Below, one piece after another: positions 1 to 64,000 of a DNA stretch of 64,000 nt. The DNA is taken from positions 7,010 through 71,009 of IMG/VR virus record IMGVR_UViG_2834101283_000005; one strand, written 5' to 3'. This DNA comes from a virus (Duplodnaviria; Caudoviricetes). Made by a program: the position numbers and the translations under genes. Positions within the stretch are counted from its first letter, which is position 1. Each line of letters opens with the position of its first letter. The notes below the pieces were generated by a model. That model had not been told where the DNA came from, searched no databases, and worked only from the letters and a program-made list of their open reading frames with translations.

Positions 1-411
1 ACAACATTCAAGGATGCTCTGGAAATCTTTAATCTTTTCTCCGTTTTCCCACAACGAGCAGCGAATGAAGTTTCTTACTGGCGACATGGTTTCGTATGAC
101 CGCTTGAGATTTTCTTTGCGAGTGACCCAGCGAAGGTTATTCGCATGGTTGTTTCTTATATTTTTGTCTATATGGTCTACCTCTGGTTTGTTTTCTGGAT
201 TTGGGACAAACGCTGTTGCTACCAATCTATGTATAGAAAAACGTTTTCCTTTCCCATCTTTCCATAAATTCACATACAAATATTTTGAAGTGGAAGTTGG
301 AGACGCACTAATGAAAATGTTGTTTTTTAAGGAATATACGCGCCCATCATCAGAAACCATGTATGAATCTTCGTACCCTTTTATCGGTAACATATTAGGT
401 AAGTTAGTTAT
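1..411 (-). CDS. NUMOD4/HNH homing endonuclease, intron-encoded; 3' end runs off the window
   Basis: Manual translation: (ITNLPN)MLPIKGYEDSYMVSDDGRVYS...RFSIHRLVATAFVPNPENKPEVDHIDKNIRNNHANNLRWVTRKEN, a NUMOD4 plus HNH signature. SD AGGAG at 423-419, then ATA at 411 or ATG at 393. Absent from the ORF track because it has no stop in the window. Confidence 0.9.
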   Translation of the reverse strand, partial: MTNLPNMLPIKGYEDSYMVSDDGRVYSLKNNIFISASPTSTSKYLYVNLWKDGKGKRFSIHRLVATAFVPNPENKPEVDHIDKNIRNNHANNLRWVTRKENLKRSYETMSPVRNFIRCSLWENGEKIKDFQSILECC

Positions 412-13140: not shown

Positions 13141-13484
13141 ATAGCAAAGCCAAGGGCAAAAGAGCAGAACTTGCCATTGCCCATTATTTTCAGGGACATG
13201 GGTTCCCTGATGCTCACCGAACGGCTCAAGTTATGGGCAAGACTGGCGGTTGCGCTGACGTAGAAGGTGTTCCGGGAATCCACATCGAGGTCAAGCATAA
13301 CGAACACTTGAATCTTTATGATGCGATTGACCAAGCGGTTCGTGACAGCGAAGCCAATGGGAACGGGAATGTCCCTACGGTCTTCCACAAGAAGAACGGT
13401 AAAGAATGGCTTGTGACAATGCGCCTTGATGATTGGTTCGGATTATATGAACGATGGAAAGGTGATAGTACCAATGCACAGTAA
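13134..13484 (+). CDS. Hjc-like Holliday junction resolvase (PD-(D/E)XK)
   Basis: NSKAKGKRAE...ADV...IHIEVKH; GTG start at 13134. Confidence 0.8.
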   Translation: MVNSKAKGKRAELAIAHYFQGHGFPDAHRTAQVMGKTGGCADVEGVPGIHIEVKHNEHLNLYDAIDQAVRDSEANGNGNVPTVFHKKNGKEWLVTMRLDDWFGLYERWKGDSTNAQ

Positions 13485-13777
13485 AGCATTGACCCTTGGG
13501 AGCCTGTTTGACGGCTTGGGTGGGTGGCAAATTGCTGCCGTAAGGGCAAACGTTACGCCACTCTGGTCAAGTGAAATAGAAAAATTTCCCTTGACGTTGA
13601 CTAAGATTAGGTTTCCAGAGACGGAGCAGTTGGGCGACATTACAAAGATTGACGGGAGCCAAATTGAGCCGGTTGATATTTTGACTATGGGAAGCCCATG
13701 CCAAAATTTGTCCGTTTCAGGCAACAGGAAGGGATTGAACGGTAACGAATCGTGTTTATTTAGAGAGGGGATTAGAA

Positions 13778-14202
13778 TTGCAAGAGAAATGCGTAAGGCA
13801 ACCAACGGGGTGTATCCCAGATACATTGTTTGGGAAAATGTTCCCGGAGCCTTCTCCACTAACAAAGGGGCTGACTTTAGAGCTGTGCTGGAAGAAATCA
13901 CAGAAACCGAAATTCCAATGCCTCGTAGCGGGAAATGGGCAACAGCTGGACTGGTTAGAAGCCCTGAGTGTACAGTCGGATGGCGAACATTGGACGCCCA
14001 GTATTGGGGAGTCGCCCAACGTCGCCGTAGAATCTTCCTTGTCGCAGATTATCGTGACGGGGGGGGGGCTGCGTTGAGGAAATACTTTTTAAGCCCGAAA
14101 GCCTGTCAGGGAATCCTGCGCCGAGCCAAGACGAAAGGGAAAACGTTGCCGGACATCCTGACAAAAGCTTTGGAATCGCAAGCTGCGACCCTTGGTGTAT
14201 AG
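13778..14202 (+). pseudogene. Overlapping alternative-frame protein (M.EcoHK31I beta-like), broken by the same G10 tract
   Basis: LFGKMFPE...GESPNVAVESSLSQI before the tract joins RKYFLSPKACQGILRRAKTKGKTLP after it when one G is added. Confidence 0.65.
14059..14068 (+). repeat. G10 homopolymer tract
   Basis: GAC-GGGGGGGGGG-CT. Confidence 0.95.
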
Positions 14203-51644: not shown

Positions 51645-54600
51645 TTGGGTAAAGGCGGAGGCAAAGGCGGAAAGTCAGGCTTAGGGAAAGCGTTAGGCCT
51701 TGTTGGGGCTGTGGCCGGGTTTGCATTTCCAGGGATGTTTGGGATTTCTTCTGGGCTTTTATGGGTACAGAGAACAGCCGGAGCCATTATGGGGTTGTCT
51801 TTAGGCCAGACAATCGGGTCGGCATTAGACCCTATTGACCAAGAGACAAAGGCAAGTTCGTTCGATTCCAAGATGAATACCGTCGACTCGGATGCTCGTA
51901 TTCCTTTGGTGTATGGGACCCGAATGATTGGCGGATTACAGTCTTGGCACCAAACCAATTCAGATGATAAATGGTTAATTAAAGACGTAATCCTCGGTGA
52001 AGGGCAGTTCAGTGGTGCATACGGCTTGACAGCCAATGGCTACTTATTGAAACCGAACGGGAATATCCCGACGGTTGTTCGTCAGTACACGACAAACAGC
52101 CACTATATGTCCTCTATCAGCACTGGGAATAATCCTGTTTTTGGGCTAATTAACTGGAAATATCCAGACGCATCCGTTGAAATTAAAAATGGCGGATGGG
52201 GACGGCCCACTGATAACGATAAGCAGCTTATTCTTCGTTGGGGAACCAACGAGGTAAAGATTTGGTTGCAAGACCCAGTAGATTTAAATGACGATAGTTC
52301 CAATGATTATAATTGCTCTTTCTCTTTGTTGTACCAGTATCTCGAAGGGATTCATTATGATACCAATTTTGCAGCGGAAGGGTGGCAAGTAGTCAACCCT
52401 GTTGTTATTTCTGACCCGCCGGAAGATTTAGCTACGTGTAGTCGTACAGGCTGTTACCAAAAGCCAGTCATGTTCCGGCTGGAATCATATGACGCCACAA
52501 ACGATTCATGGATTCAGTTTTTTGATGGCACACAGGGTGCGCCGGAATATTACGAAAAGTCCGGGGCATACCCCAACATGGCATATCTCCATGCGTACCT
52601 TAAATATTCCGACAAGTTGGGGGCAGGGAACCCTACAGTAGTCTGTATTGCACATGGCCGTAAAATTTACGACACACGGACCGGCAAGACCGACTATTCG
52701 GAAAACCCCGCGATGATTGTCCGAGACTTTTTGATTAACCGAACGTTCGGCGCAGGGCATTTCATCACAGCGGACATGCTTGATGAGGATTCCTTTAAGG
52801 ATGTGGCGAATTATTGTGATGAAATTATTACGAGTACCGATGGCGCAGGGCGTTCCATTACGGAACCCCGTTACCGGCTGAATATCGTTGTCAACGAAAA
52901 GCAGACTTATCTTGAGACGTTGCAGAATATGTTGGCTTGCTTTGCCGGGTTCCTCGTATTTACCAACGGGAAAGTAGCACTAAAAGTAGAAAAAGCCGAA
53001 TCGGCGGTTTATTCTTTTACGGACGATAATATTATCGCCGACAGTATTTCCTATAAGGCCGACTCTACGGCAGACAGCCCGAATCGCTACAACGTAAAAT
53101 ACATCGAACCGAACCTTAACTGGACGGCAGTCCCGGTTATCGTGGAAGATTTAGTAAGCCAGGCGGCAAGCCCGATTGGCCGAGGAAAAGTCATTTCCAA
53201 AGATGTTGAGCTGATTGGGGTTACAAGCCAGTCCCAGGCTTCACGGTTAGGGAAAATTTATCGTGACCTTGTACGATTATGCCCCATCACCATGACCTTT
53301 AAAACTGGGATGCAGGGGATGCATTTGGAACCGGGCGATGTCGTGTTGGTTTCGCATAAAATGGTCGTTGAAGGCAAAGAAGTGGATTTGTTCAAGGATA
53401 TGCCGGTGCGTATCTTGCAAATCCAAGACGACAACGGCGAATACACGCTGACTTGTCGTCAATACAACGCATCCATTTATGACGACCGATTCGGTGGTAA
53501 CTTACAACTTCATTCGTATACGCCGATTCAGCCCGGCGACGAGGAAGAAATTATGCCCACGGCTGTCCCTCAACCAGAAAATCTAAGTGCCTACACCGTG
53601 TATAAGCAAGGGCCAGATGGTGCGGTTGCCTACGATTTGGTTGTTAAATATGACTTGCCGGATGGTTATGGAATTGAAACTGGTTTGGTCTATTATAAAA
53701 CCAATGAAGATTACGACTTGGAAAACGCCGGTGTTATTGAAGAAGATGTCCCGGCTGACGAAATTGGTTTTTCTCGTGAGTGGAAATATGCCGGTGACGC
53801 GCCTGGCGAATTCATTTTTAGTAACGTGAATGTGGGCGTAACGTATAAAATCATGGTCCGCTGCCGTAACATTAATGGCGGCGTTTCGTCCGAAGTCGGC
53901 GCGCCTACGGAAACCATTACGATTGCCCGCAAGACAGAAGTCCCGAACACTCCTGCAGGTTTCAGCGTTGTATTTGGGCAAACGTGCAAATTTGTCTGGG
54001 AGCCGGTAACAAACTCTGATGTCGACTTCTACGAATTGCGTAGCGACGAAAACGCAGGCGAACAGGAAGGATTAATTGCTAGAACAACCAACACGAGCGT
54101 TGAAGCTTCATTAACCGAACGGACTGGGACGGTCTATTTGTTCGCTCATAATGCTACAAAAGCCTATGGTTATCCTGCGGTTTTGGAATACAGCAAGGAA
54201 GAACCGCCGACGCCAGAAGTTCCTAAACTAGAGGCTAAATTAGGTGGCTTTAGCATTACTGCCGACCCAATCCCTAATGGATGCATGGGGATGAGCATTT
54301 ATATTAGTGCTTCTGGTGCTGATAATGCAGATACCGTCATCTATACACAAAATAACGTCTACTCTCATATGTGTGGAGCAGGTATTTACGACGTACAGAT
54401 TGCCTACAAGGACATCTTCGGCGAAGGCAATAAGTCTCAAGTCTCAAGCGTCCTTGTAAAAGTGTTGGTTGACAACGACTTTTTGGATGACGAAGCGGTC
54501 AGCGTAGAAAAAATTGATAAGGTTATCCAAGATGCTATCGACCAGGGCATTGAAGCTAAGAATCAAGTAGTCCAGTTAGTTGGCAACTTGAATTCTGAGG

Positions 54601-54944
54601 ATGGGGCAAAGAACTATTCGGCGTTGGTACAGCTTGAAGACGCAATTAATCTGCGAGTCAAAAAGGATGATGTGATTAACCAAATCAATGTATCCCCAGA
54701 GAGTATCTTAATTGATGGTAGCAAGGTTCATGTGACTGGTGACACTATTTTTGATAATAACGTTATCACAAACGGTATGGTTCAAGCCGGAGCCATTTCG
54801 ACCGATAAATTAGCGGCCCAAGATATAGCTATCGGCGTTGACCCGACGACAGGCATTGTGGGTGGCGCAGTTCGGCTTGACGAAAATGGTCTTACGGTAA
54901 CAGGAGATATGGGACGTCGGTTGTCTTTGACGACCAAGGCATGA
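51645..54944 (+). CDS. Central tail tip/host-specificity protein (lambda gpJ-like, FnIII domains)
   Basis: IPLVYG, YPNMAY, YSENPA.I.RD.L, LEPGDVV. Confidence 0.88.
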   Translation: MGKGGGKGGKSGLGKALGLVGAVAGFAFPGMFGISSGLLWVQRTAGAIMGLSLGQTIGSALDPIDQETKASSFDSKMNTVDSDARIPLVYGTRMIGGLQSWHQTNSDDKWLIKDVILGEGQFSGAYGLTANGYLLKPNGNIPTVVRQYTTNSHYMSSISTGNNPVFGLINWKYPDASVEIKNGGWGRPTDNDKQLILRWGTNEVKIWLQDPVDLNDDSSNDYNCSFSLLYQYLEGIHYDTNFAAEGWQVVNPVVISDPPEDLATCSRTGCYQKPVMFRLESYDATNDSWIQFFDGTQGAPEYYEKSGAYPNMAYLHAYLKYSDKLGAGNPTVVCIAHGRKIYDTRTGKTDYSENPAMIVRDFLINRTFGAGHFITADMLDEDSFKDVANYCDEIITSTDGAGRSITEPRYRLNIVVNEKQTYLETLQNMLACFAGFLVFTNGKVALKVEKAESAVYSFTDDNIIADSISYKADSTADSPNRYNVKYIEPNLNWTAVPVIVEDLVSQAASPIGRGKVISKDVELIGVTSQSQASRLGKIYRDLVRLCPITMTFKTGMQGMHLEPGDVVLVSHKMVVEGKEVDLFKDMPVRILQIQDDNGEYTLTCRQYNASIYDDRFGGNLQLHSYTPIQPGDEEEIMPTAVPQPENLSAYTVYKQGPDGAVAYDLVVKYDLPDGYGIETGLVYYKTNEDYDLENAGVIEEDVPADEIGFSREWKYAGDAPGEFIFSNVNVGVTYKIMVRCRNINGGVSSEVGAPTETITIARKTEVPNTPAGFSVVFGQTCKFVWEPVTNSDVDFYELRSDENAGEQEGLIARTTNTSVEASLTERTGTVYLFAHNATKAYGYPAVLEYSKEEPPTPEVPKLEAKLGGFSITADPIPNGCMGMSIYISASGADNADTVIYTQNNVYSHMCGAGIYDVQIAYKDIFGEGNKSQVSSVLVKVLVDNDFLDDEAVSVEKIDKVIQDAIDQGIEAKNQVVQLVGNLNSEDGAKNYSALVQLEDAINLRVKKDDVINQINVSPESILIDGSKVHVTGDTIFDNNVITNGMVQAGAISTDKLAAQDIAIGVDPTTGIVGGAVRLDENGLTVTGDMGRRLSLTTKA

Positions 54945-55705
54945 GCTTTAAAGATTCTTTAGGGAACCGCTTTGCTGGCGTCGGCCGATTTTGTACAGGT
55001 GTTGCTTCCGACGGAGACAAAGTTAGGTTTAGCACCCCTTGGGATGTTGTGCCGTCAGTGCTTATTTTCCCGTCTAATTTACAGACATCTGCTGTTGGAT
55101 ATTCTAATGTCAATATTTACCAAATGGTATCAGCATCTGAAATATCTACAGCCGGATTTACCGTAAACTGCCGGAGTATTTTAAAAGCCGGTTCTGGTGG
55201 ACAGGTTATTGTAAATAAACAGTTTGCCGATTGGAATGGCACTGATGATGGTGGATGGAAAGAATATTCGTATACATTCCCAGTTACATCAAATGCTAAC
55301 TCCATGACATTTGCTGTATCTGTTTCTGGTTGGGGACACGTTATGGAGTATCGGGACCCTCATTATTACCAATATGGGCAATGCAATGTAGATGTAAAAT
55401 GGGTAGTAGATGGCGTAGCTGTTCAGGATTGGACGAATGTTATATATCACGCTCAATCAGCTACAGTAACCAAAAATATAGAAAAAACAATTCCCGTTAC
55501 TGGGAAAAAGAATGTTGTTTTTTATGTAAAATTCTATGGTGGGAAAACTGGTGATGGGAGTGGGGACTTAAGCTATCCACCTTGCTCTGGCACCGCTTAT
55601 GTAAACTATTACAAATCAGATGTCACCACCGACACGGTAATTACTAGAGGGAAGGCCGGTTTTATCGCAGTCGACCCCAATACTGTCCCGTATCGCATTG
55701 AATAG
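54941..55705 (+). CDS. Probable C-terminal module of the gpJ-like protein, separated by a frameshift
   Basis: Its frame extends upstream as GTSVVFDDQG|MSF, continuing LTVTGD; ATGA overlap. Confidence 0.7.
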   Translation: MSFKDSLGNRFAGVGRFCTGVASDGDKVRFSTPWDVVPSVLIFPSNLQTSAVGYSNVNIYQMVSASEISTAGFTVNCRSILKAGSGGQVIVNKQFADWNGTDDGGWKEYSYTFPVTSNANSMTFAVSVSGWGHVMEYRDPHYYQYGQCNVDVKWVVDGVAVQDWTNVIYHAQSATVTKNIEKTIPVTGKKNVVFYVKFYGGKTGDGSGDLSYPPCSGTAYVNYYKSDVTTDTVITRGKAGFIAVDPNTVPYRIE

Positions 55706-55713
55706 GAGGCATT

Positions 55714-55899
55714 GTGGCATACAAAATTTACAAACAAAAATTACTCCATATCCTTGCAGAGCAGCAAGAGGATGGGAGCTACGTCATCAAACCTTATAGG
55801 TACTCAGAAAACGGTGACGTGGAGTTGCTTAATGCGGATAGCACACAAACCATGCCGCAAGAAATTTTTGAACAAAATTATGAAGTAGTGGAGGAATAA
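55714..55899 (+). CDS. Small tail-associated protein
   Basis: SD GGAGG; operonic. Confidence 0.6.
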   Translation: MAYKIYKQKLLHILAEQQEDGSYVIKPYRYSENGDVELLNADSTQTMPQEIFEQNYEVVEE

Positions 55900-58125
55900 G
55901 TGAAGCGACAAGCATTTCAGCGCGGGGAAATCCGCGATTCAAACGACAATATTATCCAAGCCGGTTCATATGGCAAAAAGTCGCCGTTTGTCACAAAGGA
56001 TAACCAAGGTATTCTTGACTATATCATAAACAACTTCCAGGCGTTGTTTGATATGGTCAGCGGAGCCTTTATTTACGTAGACAACTATGCTTCATTGCCC
56101 GAAGCCGGCTTAGATAATGCATTTTATGTGACGAAAGATGACGGTAAGACGTATCGCTGGGACGGGGAATCATGGGTTTTAGTTTCTTCGTCCGTGGATG
56201 GTTTGTCTGCATACGAGATTGCCGTAAATCATGGTTTCGAAGGCAGCGAAGACGAATGGCTTCAAAGCCTTATTTGTCAAGTTATCGACGCCGAAGTGGA
56301 TGATAACGGCAATCTGTTCTTTAATTTCAACAATGGGGTTAAGGTAGAGACACCGATTCAGCCGATTATTGATGCTATAAAATATCGCGACGAAGCAGCG
56401 GAAAGTGCGACCGAGGCGAAAACAAGTGAGACTAACTCGAAGACATCAGAACTTAATGCTAAATCTTCCGAGACAGCAGCTAAAGCGTCGGAGAATGCGG
56501 CGGCGGAATCTGAATCTAATGCCCAGGTCAGCGAAACTAATGCAAAGGCATCCGAAAATTTAGCTCAGGCTTGGGCCGTATCGGAAGGTTCCCCAGACAA
56601 CCAAAGCGACAACGAAAGCCCTACAGGAAAAACTAGAAGTGCTCGTTCATGGGCGTTAGAAACGATTGCGGCGAAAAAAGCTGCGGCAGTATCGGAGGCT
56701 AACGCAAAGGTCAGCGAAACGAACGCCAAGGCGTCCGAAGTGTCTAGTGCCAATAGCGCATCTGCTGCGGCATCATCAGAAACCCATGCGGCAAGTAGCG
56801 AAACGTCCGTGGCCCAAGCGTTAGCTGAAATTAAAGTCATCCAAAATTCCCTTGAGAGCGCGCTCTCAAAAGTTACTGGCATGGCTAAGTATTGTGGCTC
56901 GGTCAATAACTACTCAGACTTGCCGACAAGCGGGAATAAAACTGGTGATGTGTGGAATGTTGTGAATGCTGATTCCTCGCATGAAATCAAAGCTGGTGAC
57001 AATGTTATCTGGAATGGGGCTGGATGGGACAACCTTAGTGGCTTCGTAGATTTGTCCAATTACCCAACGAATGCGGACGTGTCAAAAGCTGTGGTTTCTG
57101 TCACTTACAGCAACGACCAATTAACATTTATTCAAAAGGATGGCAGCCGTATTTCTACTACGGTGAATAATGTTAATTCTGCCGTTAAGGCCACATATGA
57201 TGGTAATGGGCGTAACATAGCCAATACTTACGAAACCCAAAGCGATGCGTCTAGTGCGCATCAAGAACTAAGCGGGTATATTAACGGTATCGTATCTGGG
57301 ACAACAACTGTAGGGAAAGCCAAACAGGATGCTTCCGGCAACATCATCAATGAAACATATTTGCGACAGGATGTAGCTTCGAGTGTTTACGAGAGTAAAT
57401 CGCAAGCTAATAGCTTGGTCAAAACAGTTACGGAAAATGAGGGGAAAGTCACGGTTACGACTCAAGCTGGCTCTCAGAATAGTTTTTACACCGGTTTGAA
57501 CTTATTGCAACGTAATAAGAAATACGCTGTAGGCGATATAGCGTATAGCCCAAATCTTCCTAGTTGGGCATACCTAGAATGTATTCAAGCAGGCACAACG
57601 GGTGCGGCTGAACCCGACCTCCAAAGTAGTGGGGGGGGGGTACTAACGTCTGATGGGAGTGTACGTTGGCGCATTCGAGACAAAAGATGCCGCTATGAAG
57701 TTGGCGATATAGTGCCTAAATTGGTATCACCCAAGGATTACGAATATTTGCTTATATGTGACGGCAGTAGCTTTGATACGAGTAAATACCCTTTATTGGC
57801 TGAGGTGTTCCCGGATGGAGTATTGCCAGATTTAAGAGAGCGGTATCTCGAAGGAGCTGCTACATCAAAACAATATCGGGAAGCAGGGTTGCCGGGGATA
57901 TATGCTGCGGTTGCTGCTAAAGACGCTGTTGCATGGGGGAGTACAGGCGGAGCCTTTTACCTTAGTGGAGATTATTACAATGGGCCATTAGGGAATGGCA
58001 CGCAACCATATGCACAGAATATACTCAATTTCAATGCGTCATTGTGCAGTCCGATTTATGGCAAATCTGATACAGTACAACCTGCTTCTTATACAGTTAC
58101 TTACTATGTGTGTTGCGGAGGATAA
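55900..58125 (+). CDS. Tail fibre protein (AK.SE repeats, tail-collar-like C-terminus) with an in-frame G10 tract at 57631-57640
   Basis: NAKASE repeats; LICDGSSF...LPDLRERY; C-terminal IYGKSDTVQP. Confidence 0.88.
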   Translation: MKRQAFQRGEIRDSNDNIIQAGSYGKKSPFVTKDNQGILDYIINNFQALFDMVSGAFIYVDNYASLPEAGLDNAFYVTKDDGKTYRWDGESWVLVSSSVDGLSAYEIAVNHGFEGSEDEWLQSLICQVIDAEVDDNGNLFFNFNNGVKVETPIQPIIDAIKYRDEAAESATEAKTSETNSKTSELNAKSSETAAKASENAAAESESNAQVSETNAKASENLAQAWAVSEGSPDNQSDNESPTGKTRSARSWALETIAAKKAAAVSEANAKVSETNAKASEVSSANSASAAASSETHAASSETSVAQALAEIKVIQNSLESALSKVTGMAKYCGSVNNYSDLPTSGNKTGDVWNVVNADSSHEIKAGDNVIWNGAGWDNLSGFVDLSNYPTNADVSKAVVSVTYSNDQLTFIQKDGSRISTTVNNVNSAVKATYDGNGRNIANTYETQSDASSAHQELSGYINGIVSGTTTVGKAKQDASGNIINETYLRQDVASSVYESKSQANSLVKTVTENEGKVTVTTQAGSQNSFYTGLNLLQRNKKYAVGDIAYSPNLPSWAYLECIQAGTTGAAEPDLQSSGGGVLTSDGSVRWRIRDKRCRYEVGDIVPKLVSPKDYEYLLICDGSSFDTSKYPLLAEVFPDGVLPDLRERYLEGAATSKQYREAGLPGIYAAVAAKDAVAWGSTGGAFYLSGDYYNGPLGNGTQPYAQNILNFNASLCSPIYGKSDTVQPASYTVTYYVCCGG

Positions 58126-58128
58126 AGA

Positions 58129-58600
58129 TTGAATATAAACGATGTGATTACAGACGGTACGGCAAAATTTGTCGTCCGCTCTATGGGATTTTTGGATTTA
58201 CTGGATGCCCTTCATCCTATTGGAGATATTTATTTGACAGTAAAAGAAGGGACTCCTTTTGCCAAATTTGGTTTCGGCCAGTGGAAACTTGTAGGACAAA
58301 ACAAATGTCTCTGGGGGGGGGGGTACTGATAATGTAGCAGGGACGGAAATCGAAGCAGGTTTGCCAGAAATATATGGCAACACTGATATAGGCGGATTCT
58401 CTGGGATATATTCTGAGGCTAGTGGCGCGTTCCACTCAACGATTGTTGTTCCTAATACTACTGTTGCTACGGTAGCAAGTGCGGACACTCATTTAGAAGT
58501 AGTAGATTTTATGGCTTCTCGGTATAACCCTATTTACGGCAAATCTACTACAGTACAACCACCAGCTTATATAGTATATATATGGCAGCGAATAGCATAG
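58129..58600 (+). pseudogene. Tail tip module 1, frameshifted at G11 (58313-58323)
   Basis: G10 would give QNKCLWGGGTDNVAGTEIEAGLP, colinear with modules 2 and 4. Confidence 0.85.
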
Positions 58601-58612
58601 CAAGGAGGATAT

Positions 58613-59095
58613 ATGCAGGAAAACGATATAATTACAGATGGAGCAGCCAAGTTTAAGGTTGTAAGTAAATCAATGTTACATTGGTTTGACATTATATACC
58701 CAGTTGGGAGTGTATATGCAACAACGAAAAAAGGGAAACCCTTTGAACTTGGCGAATGGGAATTAGTCGGGCAAGACGGGACTCTCTGGGGAGTAGGAGA
58801 AGATGAAGAAGCCGGGCAGAAGAAAGATGCTGGCCTACCGAATGCGACCGGCTCTTTTGCCACCTTTAATTGGTGGGACAAGTCTGGTGCTGGAGAGACT
58901 GCGGATTATGGAGTTATTCGTAGGCGGTACAATAACAATACAAAGGCGAGCACGGTTGCTGATAATAGTGGCGGAAAAGGATTTTTTAATACGTTTATAG
59001 ACGTTGAATTATCAGGCGGGAATGGTATTTATGGCAACTCAGATACAGTTCAACCCCCAGCATACACCGTCTATTTTTGGCATAGAATTGCTTAG
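58613..59095 (+). CDS. Tail tip module 2 (YPVGS-type, no G tract)
   Basis: IITDG..KF.V, YPVGSVY, DAGLPN, IYGNSDTVQPPAY. Confidence 0.85.
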   Translation: MQENDIITDGAAKFKVVSKSMLHWFDIIYPVGSVYATTKKGKPFELGEWELVGQDGTLWGVGEDEEAGQKKDAGLPNATGSFATFNWWDKSGAGETADYGVIRRRYNNNTKASTVADNSGGKGFFNTFIDVELSGGNGIYGNSDTVQPPAYTVYFWHRIA

Positions 59096-59103
59096 GAGGA
59101 TAT

Positions 59104-59628
59104 ATGATACAGGAAAATACAATTATTACGGACGGTTCATGTAAGTTCGTAGTACGAAATATTGGTGGGGGGGGGGTAATTTCTAAAGGTTTCATTGCGA
59201 TGTTCGATGGGACTTTTCAGAACGGATACCCCATAGACGAAACCACAGGACTTCCCGATACTCATTGGCATATATGTGATGGCACGAATGGGACTCCCGA
59301 TTTGAGGGATAGGTTTATTGTTGGTTCAGGAAGTTCATATAAGGTGGGCGACAAGGGCGGCGAAGAAAAACATAAGTTAGCGGTAAACGAGTTACCAGAA
59401 AGAACTGTTGTTTCTTTTAAAAACACTAGCGGGAAAGGTATTACCACCCAACCAATTAGAGTCTGGAATACCGAACTTGAGACGATGGTGAATAATGGCT
59501 GGGGAGATTGTAATATTTATGACGCTAAAAATAATGTAACCCCACCATTAACCTCTGGTAATTTATGGCAACCCCACGAAAACCGACCACCATATTACGC
59601 TTTAGCATTTATTAAAAAGATTAGATAG
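59104..59628 (+). CDS. Tail tip module 3 (tail-collar-type) with in-frame G10 (59167-59176)
   Basis: IITDG..KF.V; WHICDGTNGTPDLRDRF; HENRPPYYALAFI. Confidence 0.85.
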   Translation: MIQENTIITDGSCKFVVRNIGGGGVISKGFIAMFDGTFQNGYPIDETTGLPDTHWHICDGTNGTPDLRDRFIVGSGSSYKVGDKGGEEKHKLAVNELPERTVVSFKNTSGKGITTQPIRVWNTELETMVNNGWGDCNIYDAKNNVTPPLTSGNLWQPHENRPPYYALAFIKKIR

Positions 59629-59637
59629 GAGAAATTA

Positions 59638-60135
59638 TTGGACAATATGATTACAGACGGGACAGCTAAGTTTGCTGTCCGCAGCTTCAAATTCAAGGAT
59701 ATTTTAGTTGGCGTATTAGACGCCATTTTCCCCGTCGGGAGCATTTACTTGACAACAGCCGAGGGTAGCCCATTTGAAAGCTTTGAATTTGGCACTTGGG
59801 AACTTGTGTCGCAGGATAGATGCCTGATGGGGGGGGGGGCTAAACACCCTGTAGGAGAGAACGTAGAAGCAGGGCTGCCAAATATTATAGGTGGTGCTAA
59901 TTTTAGAGATTGTACTACCGAAAATAGAGATACGTTAATGCAAGCACACGATGCATTTTATACTAAAAAAACTCTTTGGAAAGGCCGTCATGGGTCACTT
60001 ACTATAGAAGCGAACGAAGACCCATATTATAACTATTTATATATGGATGCTTCTCGTTGTAGCAGCATCTACGGTGCATCCGATACGGTACAGCCCCCTG
60101 CGTACACGGTTTATGTGTACAAAAGAATAGCATAA
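59638..60135 (+). CDS. Tail tip module 4 (FPVGS-type) with in-frame G11 (59829-59839)
   Basis: MITDGTAKF.V; FPVGSIY; EAGLPN; IYGASDTVQPPAY. Confidence 0.85.
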   Translation: MDNMITDGTAKFAVRSFKFKDILVGVLDAIFPVGSIYLTTAEGSPFESFEFGTWELVSQDRCLMGGGAKHPVGENVEAGLPNIIGGANFRDCTTENRDTLMQAHDAFYTKKTLWKGRHGSLTIEANEDPYYNYLYMDASRCSSIYGASDTVQPPAYTVYVYKRIA

Positions 60136-60143
60136 GGAGAAAT

Positions 60144-60653
60144 ATGGAACTATCACAAGATTTACAAAATAAAATTAACGCTGTCGCTGTTACGAGCCAA
60201 ATCAATAAACTATTAATTAAAGTAGCATTGGCGATACTTACGGGGCAGCCATACGACGACATCAAGACTGAATATGAATCAAAATTAGCCGCTGTAGATG
60301 ATACAGTGGCTTTATGTATGCCAGATTACTTCCCTGCTTGGGATGGGAACGGAGTAGCTTATGAAGTTGGGCAAAGGGTTGTGTATGATAATGTTTTATA
60401 TAAAGTCATCACAGCACACACATCACAAGCTACATGGACACCTGTGGATGCTCCGTCATTGTTTGCCAAGGTGCTGACCTCCGACGATGGAACGCCATTA
60501 CCTTGGGAGCAGCCAGACTCGACGAACCCATATATGAAGGGCGACAAAGTGCTCTATAATGGTAAGGTTTATGAGTCGTTGATTGATAATAATGTTTGGG
60601 CACCAGACGCGTATCCTGCAGGATGGAAGGAAATAGGAGACGCAGAAACATGA
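60144..60653 (+). CDS. Protein with tandem CBM5/12-like (chitin-binding type 3) domains
   Basis: PAW...YEVGQRVVY...YKVITAHTSQ.TWTP; Y..GDKV.YNGKVY.S...N.W.P...W. Confidence 0.8.
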   Translation: MELSQDLQNKINAVAVTSQINKLLIKVALAILTGQPYDDIKTEYESKLAAVDDTVALCMPDYFPAWDGNGVAYEVGQRVVYDNVLYKVITAHTSQATWTPVDAPSLFAKVLTSDDGTPLPWEQPDSTNPYMKGDKVLYNGKVYESLIDNNVWAPDAYPAGWKEIGDAET

Positions 60654-61341
60654 TGTTGAATTACTCTGTAACCGAAGTTTTAAACTTGTTAATGATTATT
60701 GGGGTTTTAGCTACATGGTTCCACTATGTAGCCTTGCGCCCTATCAAGCAGCTTTTGTTTGCGCTCAAGGATGAAATTAAAGAGCTGTCGGTCGAAATAA
60801 AAAACAGTCGGGAAGACCGCCGACATTTTGCGGAAAAGTTGTCTGGCCTTGAAGAAAGTCTCAAAGCGGCTCATGCGCGTATCAAGGAATTACGTCAAGA
60901 GCTTTTGACGTTGCGGCGAGAAGTAGAGGATGGCAAGAAATGATAGAAAAAATCGTCAACCTTTTAAACAGCGTAACATCTAAAGCTGTGGCGTTAAAAA
61001 AGCCTATTTTATGGGTTGTCATGGCTTACTTATTGGCTGTAGCTTTTATCGTTGCTGCGGTCATTGTGGGATGGGTTGCCTTATGGTACACGAGTGGCAA
61101 CCCTAATATACCTCAGGGGTTGCAAATCATTCATGAATTGGTTGGCCCGTCTACGGTTGCTTTCGTGACTTTCGTTGCGGGTTGCTTCGTAGACACTAAT
61201 AGCAATAATATCCCCGACAATATGGAAAAGAATGTTTCGAAAAGTGAACCTCAAAAATTGCACAATAAAAATGAAAGTCCGGCAGTTAATTATTGTCCTG
61301 GTAGACGGAAAAGTAAAAATAATGGAGGATTGAATAACTAA
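60650..61341 (+). CDS. Two holin/antiholin-like membrane proteins (60650-60943; 60940-61341)
   Basis: TM helices directly upstream of the endolysin. Confidence 0.65.
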
Positions 61342-61994
61342 TGTTAGGAGAATTATCAGCACGTTATGAATCAAACGGCGATTGTGGCTGCATTTCAAGC
61401 GGCTACAATGACGCCGGGGGTAAATCTTACGGTACGTATCAGTTGGCAAGCGCAGTCGGCAGCGTAGATGAGTACATCAGCTGGCTTTGCGATAAAGGGT
61501 ATTGGTTCGGTAAAGAGCTGGCTAAATATCAGGTAGTTAGTTCTGAATTTGATGCGACATGGCGATGGCTTGCGGAAACCAATAAAGCCGACTTTGAAAA
61601 GTCCCAGCACGACTATATCAAGGAAAAGTATTACGACCACGCAGTTGCTCTTTTGGCTTCTAAAGGCTGGCACATTGAAAACCACAGCGAAGTCATGAAG
61701 GATGTTGTTTGGTCAAGAGCTGTCCAGTACGGCATTGGTGATGGCTCTGGGGCGAATGGCGGCGTAGATGAAATGTGGGACGATGCGGTACACCAGATGT
61801 GGAACGTCAACGATGGCGGTTATACGGGCTATCCTAATTTGTCCTATATTGACGATGCACGGTTCGACTATGACTTCATCTATGCCATCTACATTCTGGT
61901 TTGCTCAAGCCCTGAATGGAATAGCTCGGCCTTGCGGGATAGCCTGAATAACCGATTTGCGGACGAATGTAACAGAGCCTTGGCACGCTTATAG
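61341..61994 (+). CDS. Endolysin, lysozyme-like (VgrG3-C-like muramidase fold)
   Basis: LGELSARYES.G...SG.ND.GGKSYG.YQLAS...VWSRAVQYG. Confidence 0.8.
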   Translation: MLGELSARYESNGDCGCISSGYNDAGGKSYGTYQLASAVGSVDEYISWLCDKGYWFGKELAKYQVVSSEFDATWRWLAETNKADFEKSQHDYIKEKYYDHAVALLASKGWHIENHSEVMKDVVWSRAVQYGIGDGSGANGGVDEMWDDAVHQMWNVNDGGYTGYPNLSYIDDARFDYDFIYAIYILVCSSPEWNSSALRDSLNNRFADECNRALARL

Positions 61995-62002
61995 GTGACT
62001 CA

Positions 62003-62446
62003 ATGTGGAAAGCCGTAAAAATCTTTTGCCTGTGCTTGGCGTTGTCTTGTTCATCTGCTTTTGTTTTGCCATCGCAAGCTGCGTCCACGATAGCAACAAC
62101 GCAGCAAAAGCAGACAGTGACAATATCCGAATCACAGTTGAGCAATCTCAAAAGGACAGCCAGCGAGCTACGGATGAAATTGGAACTGCTCAACAGCAAC
62201 TCTCAAGCGGACAAGAAACGCTTGGAAGAGCTAAATCAACAGTTGCAGACTTACGAGAATCAAATCAATCAAGCGCAGACCTCATTGGCCAATGCACAGA
62301 CTTACTTGACGAACTTGACCGCCAACTTGGAGAAATTGGGAACTCAGGTAAATGAGTTGGAACATAAGTTGGCCGTCAAGAATCGTCAAAATAAGACTGG
62401 TTGGACAGTTGCTGGGATTGCGTTGTTGATGGCCGTAACAAAATGA
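62003..62446 (+). CDS. Spanin-like exported coiled-coil protein (outer frame)
   Basis: N-terminal signal, heptad coil, C-terminal hydrophobic GWTVAGIALLMAV. Confidence 0.65.
   Translation: MWKAVKIFCLCLALSCSSAFVLPSQAASTIATTQQKQTVTISESQLSNLKRTASELRMKLELLNSNSQADKKRLEELNQQLQTYENQINQAQTSLANAQTYLTNLTANLEKLGTQVNELEHKLAVKNRQNKTGWTVAGIALLMAVTK
62005..62355 (+). CDS. Spanin-like lipoprotein fully nested in another frame
   Basis: Hydrophobic signal with lipobox IAS-C and a coiled coil; starts 2 nt after the outer gene. Confidence 0.6.
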   Translation: MESRKNLLPVLGVVLFICFCFAIASCVHDSNNAAKADSDNIRITVEQSQKDSQRATDEIGTAQQQLSSGQETLGRAKSTVADLRESNQSSADLIGQCTDLLDELDRQLGEIGNSGK

Positions 62447-62448
62447 CA

Positions 62449-62485
62449 AAAAAGCCAAAAGAGCCAATTCTTTTGGCTTTTTTTA
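62449..62485. terminator. Terminator ending the lysis operon
   Basis: AAAAGCCAAAAGA...TCTTTTGGCTTTTTTT. Confidence 0.8.
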
Positions 62486-62560
62486 TTAGAAAAATTAATA
62501 TCAATATGGTAAAATAAAATTAAATAGCGACTATTAGAAAACCATGGAAGAGGTTTTTGT

Positions 62561-63010
62561 ATGAATCCATATGTGCAAGATAATGAATTTCCAGATTCAT
62601 TTCCTCGGAATTTTGTGAGTGAAATTTTGCCAGAAAACGCAGTCCCGATAAACTTAAATGTTTATCGAGTATGTTTAGAAGGGGTTATAAATGCAGAAGC
62701 ATTTCAAAGTTCTTTTGAAGCCGAGTCTCGACTAATCAGGCCAAGAGAACTTGATTTAAAAGACCCGTCGACGTATTCAACTAGTTGTTTCGAAAAAGCA
62801 AAAGACATAAAAAGAAGTTTAAAAATGTTTCGAAAGAAAAACCATCCTAAAGCAATAGTGGCTAGAGGAGAAACTGGTACTACTCATGGACTAGTTTTAC
62901 AGGCTCCGCATAAGAGCAAAACAAGCCATGTAAATTGGTGGATTTATAAAGGACATGATGTGTCTGGGAATTTTACAGATGTTACAGATGAGATTGTAGG
63001 GGGAGAATAA
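62561..63010 (+). CDS. Putative ADP-ribosyltransferase-like toxin
   Basis: VYRV...YSTSCF...HVNWWIY, an R/STS-type ART-like pattern; first gene of a low-GC operon. Confidence 0.5.
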   Translation: MNPYVQDNEFPDSFPRNFVSEILPENAVPINLNVYRVCLEGVINAEAFQSSFEAESRLIRPRELDLKDPSTYSTSCFEKAKDIKRSLKMFRKKNHPKAIVARGETGTTHGLVLQAPHKSKTSHVNWWIYKGHDVSGNFTDVTDEIVGGE

Positions 63011-63014
63011 AGTA

Positions 63015-63572
63015 ATGAAAATACCAAAGCCATATTTTACCAATGTCCCCCATGTTGGGGATTTAGAATTTTATTATGCTTTTTACATGCTTGAAAGACC
63101 CATTTTATTTATTTGCAAAGACGCTAACAACAACGTTTATTTGTGTTCATGTTGTGAGTTGTACCCAGAATTACAATGGGTAATAGCTAAGATTTCTATT
63201 CAAGAGATACTTTCTTTAATCGATAATAAGCTTTCACTGTTTGACATTTTCCAGTCAAGTGAAAACAAATGGGTTGCCGAATGGAAAGAAGGAGATTTAA
63301 CAGAACGTATTTATGAAGTGAATTTATTTGACGATGATATGTTGCCTGACCAAGGCGAATTCCTAGATGCAGAAGATGGCGAATTTAACGATGTTGCTTC
63401 TGTGTTATTGGCAGAAAATATTGACACTAATGATATTCAATATGACCAAGACGATGGAGTTGGGGCTTCCGAATACTTCTCCGAAGGGGTTTATGTATGT
63501 AACTTTAATTGGTCAAGTGAAATTAACCAAAAAACGATTAGTCTTGCTGACAATTTCTCATCAGCGGCATAG
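63015..63572 (+). CDS. Putative antitoxin (DUF6575-like) with acidic, aromatic C-terminal tail
   Basis: FYYAFY...PILFICKD...YLC; tail ends LADNFSSAA. Confidence 0.5.
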   Translation: MKIPKPYFTNVPHVGDLEFYYAFYMLERPILFICKDANNNVYLCSCCELYPELQWVIAKISIQEILSLIDNKLSLFDIFQSSENKWVAEWKEGDLTERIYEVNLFDDDMLPDQGEFLDAEDGEFNDVASVLLAENIDTNDIQYDQDDGVGASEYFSEGVYVCNFNWSSEINQKTISLADNFSSAA

Positions 63573-63586
63573 TAAAAAAGGAGGGG

Positions 63587-64000
63587 TTGATTTTGGAAGA
63601 AAGTCACGTTCAGTTTAAGCAACCAATGTTAGAAGAATGTTGCTTTAGTGTTAATAAAGGTTTTTTTAAAGCGGACAAAAAAAACACAAGTAAATCCCAA
63701 AAAATAAAGTTACCATTAAAAACCGAAATTAATGTGGGGGAAATAATAGATAATAAATCGTTTGTCTCGTTATTGGTAGAAGTTGGCGAGAAAAATAACA
63801 ATACCCCATTTTACGCTCGCACCAAAATGAGTAGTTTGTTTGTTTTAGGAGAAGGCTTATCAGAAGATGAATGTGAAAGTTTTTTAAAAATAAATGCTCC
63901 GGCATTATTATTGAGCTACACTCGTCCCATTATCGCATCGTTAGTTAACGATGCTGCCCTTCCTAAATATAACATTCCTTTTATAAATTTTACTAAATAA
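63587..64000 (+). CDS. SecB-like chaperone
   Basis: NAPALLLSYTRPIIASLVNDAALPKYNIPFINF is a SecB-family C-terminal signature. Confidence 0.8.
   Translation: MILEESHVQFKQPMLEECCFSVNKGFFKADKKNTSKSQKIKLPLKTEINVGEIIDNKSFVSLLVEVGEKNNNTPFYARTKMSSLFVLGEGLSEDECESFLKINAPALLLSYTRPIIASLVNDAALPKYNIPFINFTK

Follow-up and report, generated by a model that had tools for sequence, protein, structure and literature searches.

A tail-fibre gene followed by four short genes that encode putative stand-alone tip modules (mod1 to mod4) was analysed in a 64-kb stretch of DNA (hereafter, the window), which is part of a 71-kb IMG/VR provirus record (IMGVR_UViG_2834101283_000005) and is read as prophage DNA of a Megasphaera-type gut bacterium. 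The genes at this locus encode, in order, a 1099-amino-acid (aa) host-specificity-type tail protein (Phage-tail_3), an H-type-lectin protein, the fibre, the four short modules, a protein with two CBM5/12 domains, and lysis proteins. The closest relatives of the fibre are found in assemblies of Megasphaera and other Negativicutes; a tblastn search of GenBank phages with the fibre yielded short partial matches only, and the viral and genome loci retrieved with the whole fibre share only the N-terminal part and differ in their tips.

The fibre gene (55900–58125; this and all features below are on the + strand) encodes a 741-aa protein that consists of an N-terminal anchor, a shaft of Ala/Ser/Glu-rich repeats, a small CBM5/12-like domain, and a built-in (cis) tip. 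The first part of the small domain (57496–57630; fibre residues about 533–577; predicted local distance difference test score (pLDDT) 92–95), which would remain on the shaft after slippage, is directly followed by a tract of 10 G (57631–57640). This tract, which is in frame (ON) in the window, codes for GGG in the loop that precedes the last hairpin of the small domain. The built-in hairpin, VLTSDGSVRWRIRD (57640–57684; residues 581–595), is the last element of this domain, as judged from the DSSP strands of a structural model, and is followed by the built-in tip (57685–58125), a collar-type receptor-binding domain similar to those of T4 gp37 and gp12 by structural alignment, and to gp37 by phmmer.

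The first stand-alone module, mod1 (58129–58600), contains 11 G at 58313–58323 and is out of frame, so that its product is 66 aa long, as compared to 156 aa with 10 G. The second, mod2 (58613–59095; 160 aa), is tract-free. The third, mod3 (59104–59628; 174 aa), carries 10 G at 59167–59176, immediately past its hairpin, and mod4 (59638–60135; 165 aa) carries 11 G at 59829–59839; both are in frame. The built-in tip, mod2, mod3, and mod4 are hence all in frame simultaneously in the window, while mod1 is out.

Related loci (L numbers) were gathered from viral and metagenome contigs with back-translated patterns for the core of the small domain (PSWAYLEC) and for the hairpin (ITDGTAKF); some loci came from a family search centred on a Megasphaera metagenome-assembled genome. 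A total of 99 non-identical loci with the domain core were obtained, from human-gut and other metagenomes.

G tracts and the outcome of slippage

Runs of at least 8 G are strongly over-represented in the window (17 matches versus 1.3 expected; none of 100 shuffles reached 17). Exactly five tracts of this length are present in the 64 kb, four of them within the fibre/module locus. The sequence-only reading of this DNA had proposed that the fibre reads SSGGG followed by the hairpin peptide, and that slippage of the tract ends the fibre right at this point. Both parts were borne out when the frames were computed for 8, 9, 11, and 12 G. Exactly 10 G give ...SSGGG|VLTSDGSVRWRIRD in the fibre, whereas its last residues would be ...GGG(G)Y* for 9 or 12 G and ...GG(G)GTNV* for 8 or 11 G. 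Any slip by a number of nucleotides (nt) that is not a multiple of three thus stops the fibre 1 to 3 codons past the tract-encoded GGG. Re-initiation of the built-in tip after a slip was considered for the window and rejected, as there is no in-frame start past the tract.

Tract-length differences of this kind were also found among relatives of the fibre. Four relatives with 74–94% identity (P0028, P0036, P0002, and P0012) terminate at the tract with ...SSGGGY, ...SSGGGGY, or ...GGGGTNV as their last residues, in line with tract lengths of 9, 11, or 12 G, and one full-length relative has an interrupted tract (SSWGGG). Other related loci have 7, 8, or 9 G (L124 family), 11 G (L035), 6 G (L036), or 9 G (L039), and a tract at the position of that in mod3 is also present in homologues from L025, L158, and L044. 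Barring homopolymer sequencing errors, these sequences indicate that tract lengths vary in nature. The locus thus shares two features with contingency loci, namely a homopolymer of at least 8 nt inside an open reading frame (ORF) in which a change in length switches the frame, and length polymorphism among natural near-identical copies.

Three of the tracts have common flanks (GT-Gn-TA; 57629–57642, 58312–58325, and 59165–59178), with which out-of-frame readings meet TAC TAA, TAC TGA, or TAA within one to four codons; the products of the OFF states would therefore end cleanly. In the case of mod3, the OFF states (59104–59180) would yield a peptide of 24–27 aa that comprises little beyond the hairpin; such a peptide could cap the corresponding socket on the shaft or compete for it. 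In two pairs of related loci (L026/L129 and L028/L039), a shifted-frame ATG is located immediately before the cis hairpin (MADGNVHWRVRD and MTDGTAHWRVRD), and the G tract is at the Shine-Dalgarno position; judging from this arrangement, translation of the built-in tip might restart after a slip in these loci and give a trans module.

The fifth tract of the window (10 G; 14059–14068) lies near the 3′ end of an ORF of 258 aa (13426–14202, + strand) in which motifs of DNA cytosine-5 methyltransferases (PCQ and ENV) were recognized by eye; this ORF may encode a phase-variable phage methyltransferase.

Stand-alone modules and their shared hairpin

All four modules begin with a shared motif and have their own Shine-Dalgarno sites, in agreement with the sequence-only reading. 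The N-termini are NDVITDGTAKFVV (mod1), NDIITDGAAKFKV (mod2), NTIITDGSCKFVV (mod3), and DNMITDGTAKFAV (mod4); each start is located 5–8 nt past a GGAGGA, AGGAGGA, or AGGAG sequence and 3–7 residues ahead of (V/I/M)ITDG(T/A/S)(A/C)KF.V. The modules are paralogues of the C-terminal 160 residues of the fibre, with an alignment that begins exactly at the hairpin and an identity of 18–30% to the fibre tip and of 24–45% among each other. Among the modules, 8–10 of the 12 hairpin residues are identical, as compared to 19–42% of residues over the remainder, while 5–6 of the 13 hairpin codons differ synonymously in each module pair; conservation of the hairpin despite these synonymous differences shows selection on the peptide and not recent copying of DNA. 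The built-in hairpin has just 2–4 of 12 residues in common with the module hairpins, and 0–1 of 13 codons are identical between cis and trans hairpins in the window.

Two modules, mod2 (36.5 bits) and mod4 (40.5 bits), passed the gathering cut-off (27 bits) of the Pfam family Gp10_C (PF21939), which represents domains of the T4 baseplate gp10 C-terminal type. The in-frame form of mod1 is 42–45% identical to mod2 and mod4. No Pfam family, including Gp10_C, was matched by mod3 at E ≤ 0.1; this module is 24–35% identical to the other modules and contains a collar-like stretch, ..HICDGTNGTPDLRDRF.., read from its translation. A database search for stand-alone homologues of the modules yielded 488 matches. 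P0121 is a natural OFF fragment of a homologue that is 92% identical to mod4, and was called from the part past the tract only.

Genes located directly downstream of a phage fibre gene often encode chaperones, and mod1 is out of frame in the window; the modules could thus be assembly chaperones, or decaying duplicates of the 3′ end of the fibre gene, without a role in receptor binding. We consider this explanation highly improbable in view of the intact ORFs, the purifying selection on the hairpin, and the stand-alone homologues, which number in the hundreds. In addition, mod2 and mod4 belong to a family of tip/baseplate-type domains that is not a known chaperone family, and the frameshift in mod1 lies within its G tract, where it is reversible.

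Domain structure of the fibre end

Residues 515–741 of the fibre were folded with AlphaFold2 from an alignment of 66 relatives (pLDDT 84). A Foldseek search of the PDB with this model gave nothing at E ≤ 0.001; VIA-align, applied to the resulting list, separated two domains. Model residues 19..81 (fibre residues 533–595) align as one unit with the C-terminal domain of the Pam1 cyanophage tailspike (7eea_A; Z 7.8; root-mean-square deviation 1.9 over 55 residues) and, with Z about 5, with CBM5/12 modules of chitin deacetylases and chitinases. Because the small domain had no Pfam match for CBM5/12 (PF02839), we term it CBM5/12-like on the basis of its predicted fold, without classing it as a member of this family. 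Model residues 84/85..227 resemble the T4 tips gp37 (2xgf_A; Z 10.3) and gp12 (1ocy; Z 8.9); similarity of the built-in tip to T4 gp37 was also found with phmmer (E 7.6e-6), and residues 617–649 of the fibre showed a weak match to Phage Tail Collar (PF07484; 22.2 bits versus a gathering cut-off of 24).

The element shared by fibre and modules had initially been taken for a single strand; the model instead shows a two-stranded beta-hairpin (strands 68–71 and 74–80), which is located within the range of the small domain (19..80/81) and outside that of the tip. Because the hairpin belongs to the small domain and not to the tip, the tract and the module starts divide one domain at one point, and a slipped fibre and the free modules would thus represent complementary halves of a single fold. 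In other fibres (P0053, L029, and L033), the small domain occurs as an internal repeat, with copies that end in ...ITDGTAKF.V, which confirms that the hairpin is part of this domain.

Natural split and fused forms

Several related loci encode shafts that end ahead of the hairpin. The L044 locus encodes a 689-aa shaft with the architecture of the window fibre. The shaft gene has no tract and closes with ...AGTTGATEPDFSEVK TAA TAA; two hairpin-led modules lie downstream, and one of them contains an 8-G tract just past the hairpin, as in mod3. The L044 shaft is 32% identical to the window fibre overall and shares 38 of 44 residues in the incomplete domain, which is the best-conserved stretch. A −1 ribosomal frameshift that would join the L044 shaft to its first module is permitted by the frame; no canonical slippery heptamer is present. 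A second shaft that ends ahead of the hairpin without a tract was found in L171, with a hairpin-led gene downstream. In L035, L036, L201, and L216, a stub of 87–92 aa ends at the tract and the built-in tip is deleted, save for its last ~30 codons; the next gene, which is the only one with a hairpin in these loci, encodes a 382-aa protein that starts with MTKEITDGTAKF.

The stub and the trans gene of L035 share one frame, which is interrupted by two TAA codons. As a stand-in for the complex, L035:3362–3850 was read through, with TAA as Gly, and folded with single-chain AlphaFold2 from an alignment of cis domains. The stub strands (pLDDT 89–96) and the trans hairpin block (93) were modelled with higher confidence than the 45-residue linker (50–70), and the Pam1 domain (7eea_B) aligned over all of its 56 residues with model range 35..146 (Z 6.5). 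In this surrogate model, the trans hairpin therefore occupies the position of the cis hairpin.

The 382-aa hairpin-led protein (L035:3749–6250; also in L036, L039, L028, L201, and L216) starts with MTKEITDGTAKFVVRS and has a Cys/Gly/Arg-rich C-terminus, and its gene is followed by a reverse-transcriptase gene; from this gene context, the protein appears to be a tip that is diversified by a retroelement and has the same hairpin as its connector. A reverse-transcriptase-like protein (345 aa) is also encoded in L024:2964–8386 (the contig of L086, L130, and L218), where the fibre gene is apparently in two pieces, encoding a 294-aa N-terminal and a 404-aa C-terminal part; the insert between the two pieces also encodes proteins of 389 aa and 144 aa.

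The opposite arrangement, i.e., a shaft fused to a module at the hairpin, was identified in L135, L163, L169, L187, L239, L243, L249, and others, and L109 carries in cis a module that is stand-alone in P0135; module hairpins thus occupy the cis position in these fusions. Within the L124 family, fusions with at least four junction variants were found (SGIEVNDGSAKF, SGWREVNDGSAKF, SEWGEVNDGSAKF, and SGWGEVNDGSAKF), none of which retains a trans module. An interrupted G tract (SGIE, SGWRE, SEWGE, or SGWGE) is seen at the fusion junctions of L135, L243, L169, L239, L187, L163, L249, and L229; in these fusion loci, a single tip remains and the tract is lost.

The L124-family junctions establish that fusion has happened in evolution, and would be expected if the modules were mainly a reservoir of cassettes, in which recombination at the hairpin sequence swaps the built-in tip by deletion or fusion and expression in trans is incidental. 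This explanation nonetheless appears improbable for several reasons. Each module has its own Shine-Dalgarno site and a start 3–7 residues before the hairpin, three modules have frame-switching tracts of their own, and natively split systems have no built-in tip to swap. The near absence of identical codons between cis and trans hairpins, along with the lack of high-identity repeats of at least 20 nt and of convincing inverted repeats at the locus, also argues against recombination at the hairpin. Deletion is, moreover, irreversible, and would represent an evolutionary route and not a switch.

Across the related loci, the shaft domains are nearly invariant, and the hairpin precedes unrelated folds, including Gp10_C-type and collar-type domains, a small coiled-coil/beta domain, and the 382-aa protein beside the reverse transcriptase. 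One generalization, to which we give an even chance of being correct, is that many gut Negativicutes phages link tips to shafts by way of a portable split-domain plug. Binding domains of unrelated folds would all carry the same universal connector at their N-terminus, namely the terminal hairpin of a CBM5/12-like domain, and would compete for a single socket at the shaft end; poly-G slippage would pick between built-in and trans tips. Fibre tips would then be exchanged in a natural plug-and-play manner, with switching that is heritable and combinatorial. The mechanism proposed below would also imply that the natural link between shaft and binding domain is very small, at about 13 residues.

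Proposed docking of tips in trans, and association of modules with the tract

Host range, the dynamics between phages and bacteria in the gut, and the selection of therapeutic phages all depend centrally on how a phage carries several receptor specificities and switches among them. Phages are known to achieve this by DNA inversion, with diversity-generating retroelements, through branched spike complexes, or by means of ON/OFF tracts. Based on the arrangement of the genes and on the models above, we consider it somewhat probable that the locus encodes a split tail fibre with interchangeable plug-in tips that dock in trans on the truncated shaft. With the tract in frame, the hairpin and the built-in tip would be joined to the shaft; after a slip, the shaft would stop just past the Gly loop, leaving its last domain without the hairpin. 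A trimer of any expressed module could then place three hairpins into the three incomplete shaft domains and thereby form a receptor-binding tip. The in-frame built-in tip would win over modules, so that trans tips would serve when the built-in tip is off, and the outcome would be heritable, reversible, and combinatorial host recognition. The docking itself, its stoichiometry, its dependence on the state of the tract, and the dominance of the cis tip are what we infer from gene anatomy, frame outcomes, the domain boundary in the model, tract-length variation, the split and fused forms, and the association described below, all of which are shown here. If correct, this model would extend the above list by a mechanism that places a slippage tract at the point where a domain is split, so that loss of the built-in tip creates the docking site for spares supplied in trans. 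The collection of about 100 related loci with split, fused, and switchable forms makes the mechanism directly testable.

The association between junction tracts and stand-alone modules was assessed in the 76 loci for which 700 nt or more were available downstream, with hand corrections for L201, L216, and L171. Hairpin-led stand-alone genes were present in 45 of 47 loci with a tract at the junction, as compared to 7 of 29 loci without (Fisher's test, about 1e-10, uncorrected for ancestry). In the L124 family, such a gene was found in 28/28 members with a tract and in 0/6 members without; the latter carry either tip A on its own or a fused tip B, with no spare module in any of them. The spare module of this family has no tract of its own, and the L124 locus would therefore be a simple two-state switch.

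The earlier proposal that the modules are plug-in tips which complete the last domain was thus partly supported, namely by the assignment of the hairpin to the preceding small domain, by the split shafts and hairpin fusions, and by the association of tracts with modules. On the other hand, a hairpin-led gene is retained next to a built-in tip that lacks a tract in three lineages (L130/L218; L160/L162/L183/L196/L213; and L240), a finding that speaks against a strict need for truncation of the shaft, or in favour of another docking site. This is one of several points that weigh against docking in trans on the truncated shaft. Since the built-in tip and mod2 to mod4 are all in frame in the window, three modules would be expressed without a free site. 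The association ignores shared ancestry, and counting by lineage reduces it to roughly 8/10 versus 3/10; it would also be expected with docking elsewhere, as a switchable tip is tolerable only given another receptor-binding protein. The domain boundaries are ranges from the VIA-align structural alignment of the model. Lastly, the L035 surrogate indicates compatibility and is no independent proof, because its input alignment held homologues of the cis hairpin and was biased to the expected answer.

Some of these points are shared by the explanation that the modules are independent small receptor-binding proteins attached elsewhere on the tail, for example at the baseplate or laterally on the fibre, with the hairpin as a general beta-sheet tag and a tract that only toggles the built-in tip. 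Both the three lineages with tract-less built-in tips and the joint in-frame state of the built-in tip and three modules in the window would fit attachment elsewhere, as would the finding that, among the matches listed, 112 of 120 stand-alone Gp10_C proteins bear other N-terminal adaptors. We nevertheless regard this explanation as unlikely. The hairpin is part of the fold of the shaft's own domain, natural fusions set modules exactly at the position of the cis hairpin, and natively tip-less shafts have been retained, in which the incomplete domain is strongly conserved; the window yielded no further protein whose small domain is incomplete.

Comparison with known systems

In phages of the K1-5/SP6, G7C, and Klebsiella KP32/KP34 types, a second receptor-binding protein docks via a short conserved N-terminal peptide of 7–29 aa (Latka et al. 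2019, PMC6872550). The modules described here likewise have a conserved short N-terminal peptide (about 13 aa) before variable binding domains, and their proposed attachment is also non-covalent. In these anchor-branch systems, the two proteins coexist, and docking is onto an adaptor protein or a complete T4gp10-like module (domains 2/3), whereas the site proposed here is an incomplete CBM5/12-like domain, the peptide would be its missing hairpin, and the site is occupied in cis unless the tract slips. No T4gp10-like (domains 2/3) docking module was identified by Pfam, or by a fold search of fibre residues 515–741.

Hypermutable poly-G tracts occur in receptor-binding genes of Campylobacter phages, according to work cited in PMC10877375, and contingency loci have been described in T2/T4 (bioRxiv 10.1101/2025.10.21.683753). 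As in these phages, homopolymer slippage in a structural or host-range gene would generate reversible ON/OFF subpopulations. While the tracts of the Campylobacter phages and of T2/T4 toggle a whole gene, the tract described here is located at a domain split, the OFF shaft seems built for tips supplied in trans, and the spares bear further tracts.

The T2-type gp38 adhesin, which is encoded by a separate gene, is reportedly bound non-covalently at the tip of gp37, distally on the long fibre, and sets the host range (Dunne et al. 2018 and earlier work). A separately encoded distal adhesin is also what we propose here; T2 gp38 differs in that there is one adhesin per phage, with a different fold and no phase switch. 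We know of no split-domain complementation for T2 gp38. Completion of an incomplete beta fold by a neighbouring protein is characteristic of chaperone-usher pili, in which the N-terminal extension of the next subunit performs this role (donor-strand complementation). The comparison is an analogy only, as pili involve an Ig-like pilin that lacks one strand, along with a periplasmic chaperone and an usher, whereas a CBM5/12-like fold would lack its C-terminal hairpin here.

Invertible segments in phages Mu (Gin) and P1 (Cin), as well as diversity-generating retroelements, vary host range through alternative C-terminal fibre tips beside the shaft. Unlike in Mu and P1, all genes of the locus are on the + strand and the tips have their own translation starts. 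Inverted repeats at the locus are weak (70–82% complementary), unlike those expected of a Gin/Cin-type system, and no recombinase or invertase gene is present among the ORFs listed for 52000–64000. Programmed inversion and gene conversion were hence rejected, given the absence of long identical repeats and of convincing inverted repeats at the locus.

No description of an arrangement with a split-domain hairpin, a socket occupied in cis, and tract-bearing spares was found in the literature searched. Relative to the known systems, and as judged from the genes and models, three aspects differ, namely that the peptide would be the acceptor's own missing hairpin, that the socket would be occupied in cis unless the tract slips, and that the spares have tracts of their own.

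Neighbouring genes

The gene that adjoins mod4 (60144–60653, + strand) encodes a 169-aa protein with two CBM_5_12 domains (Pfam PF02839; E 2.7e-18). In L024 (2290–2985), a single 231-aa protein seemingly joins this CBM protein to the product of a 61-aa ORF that is located upstream of the fibre gene in the window (55714–55899).

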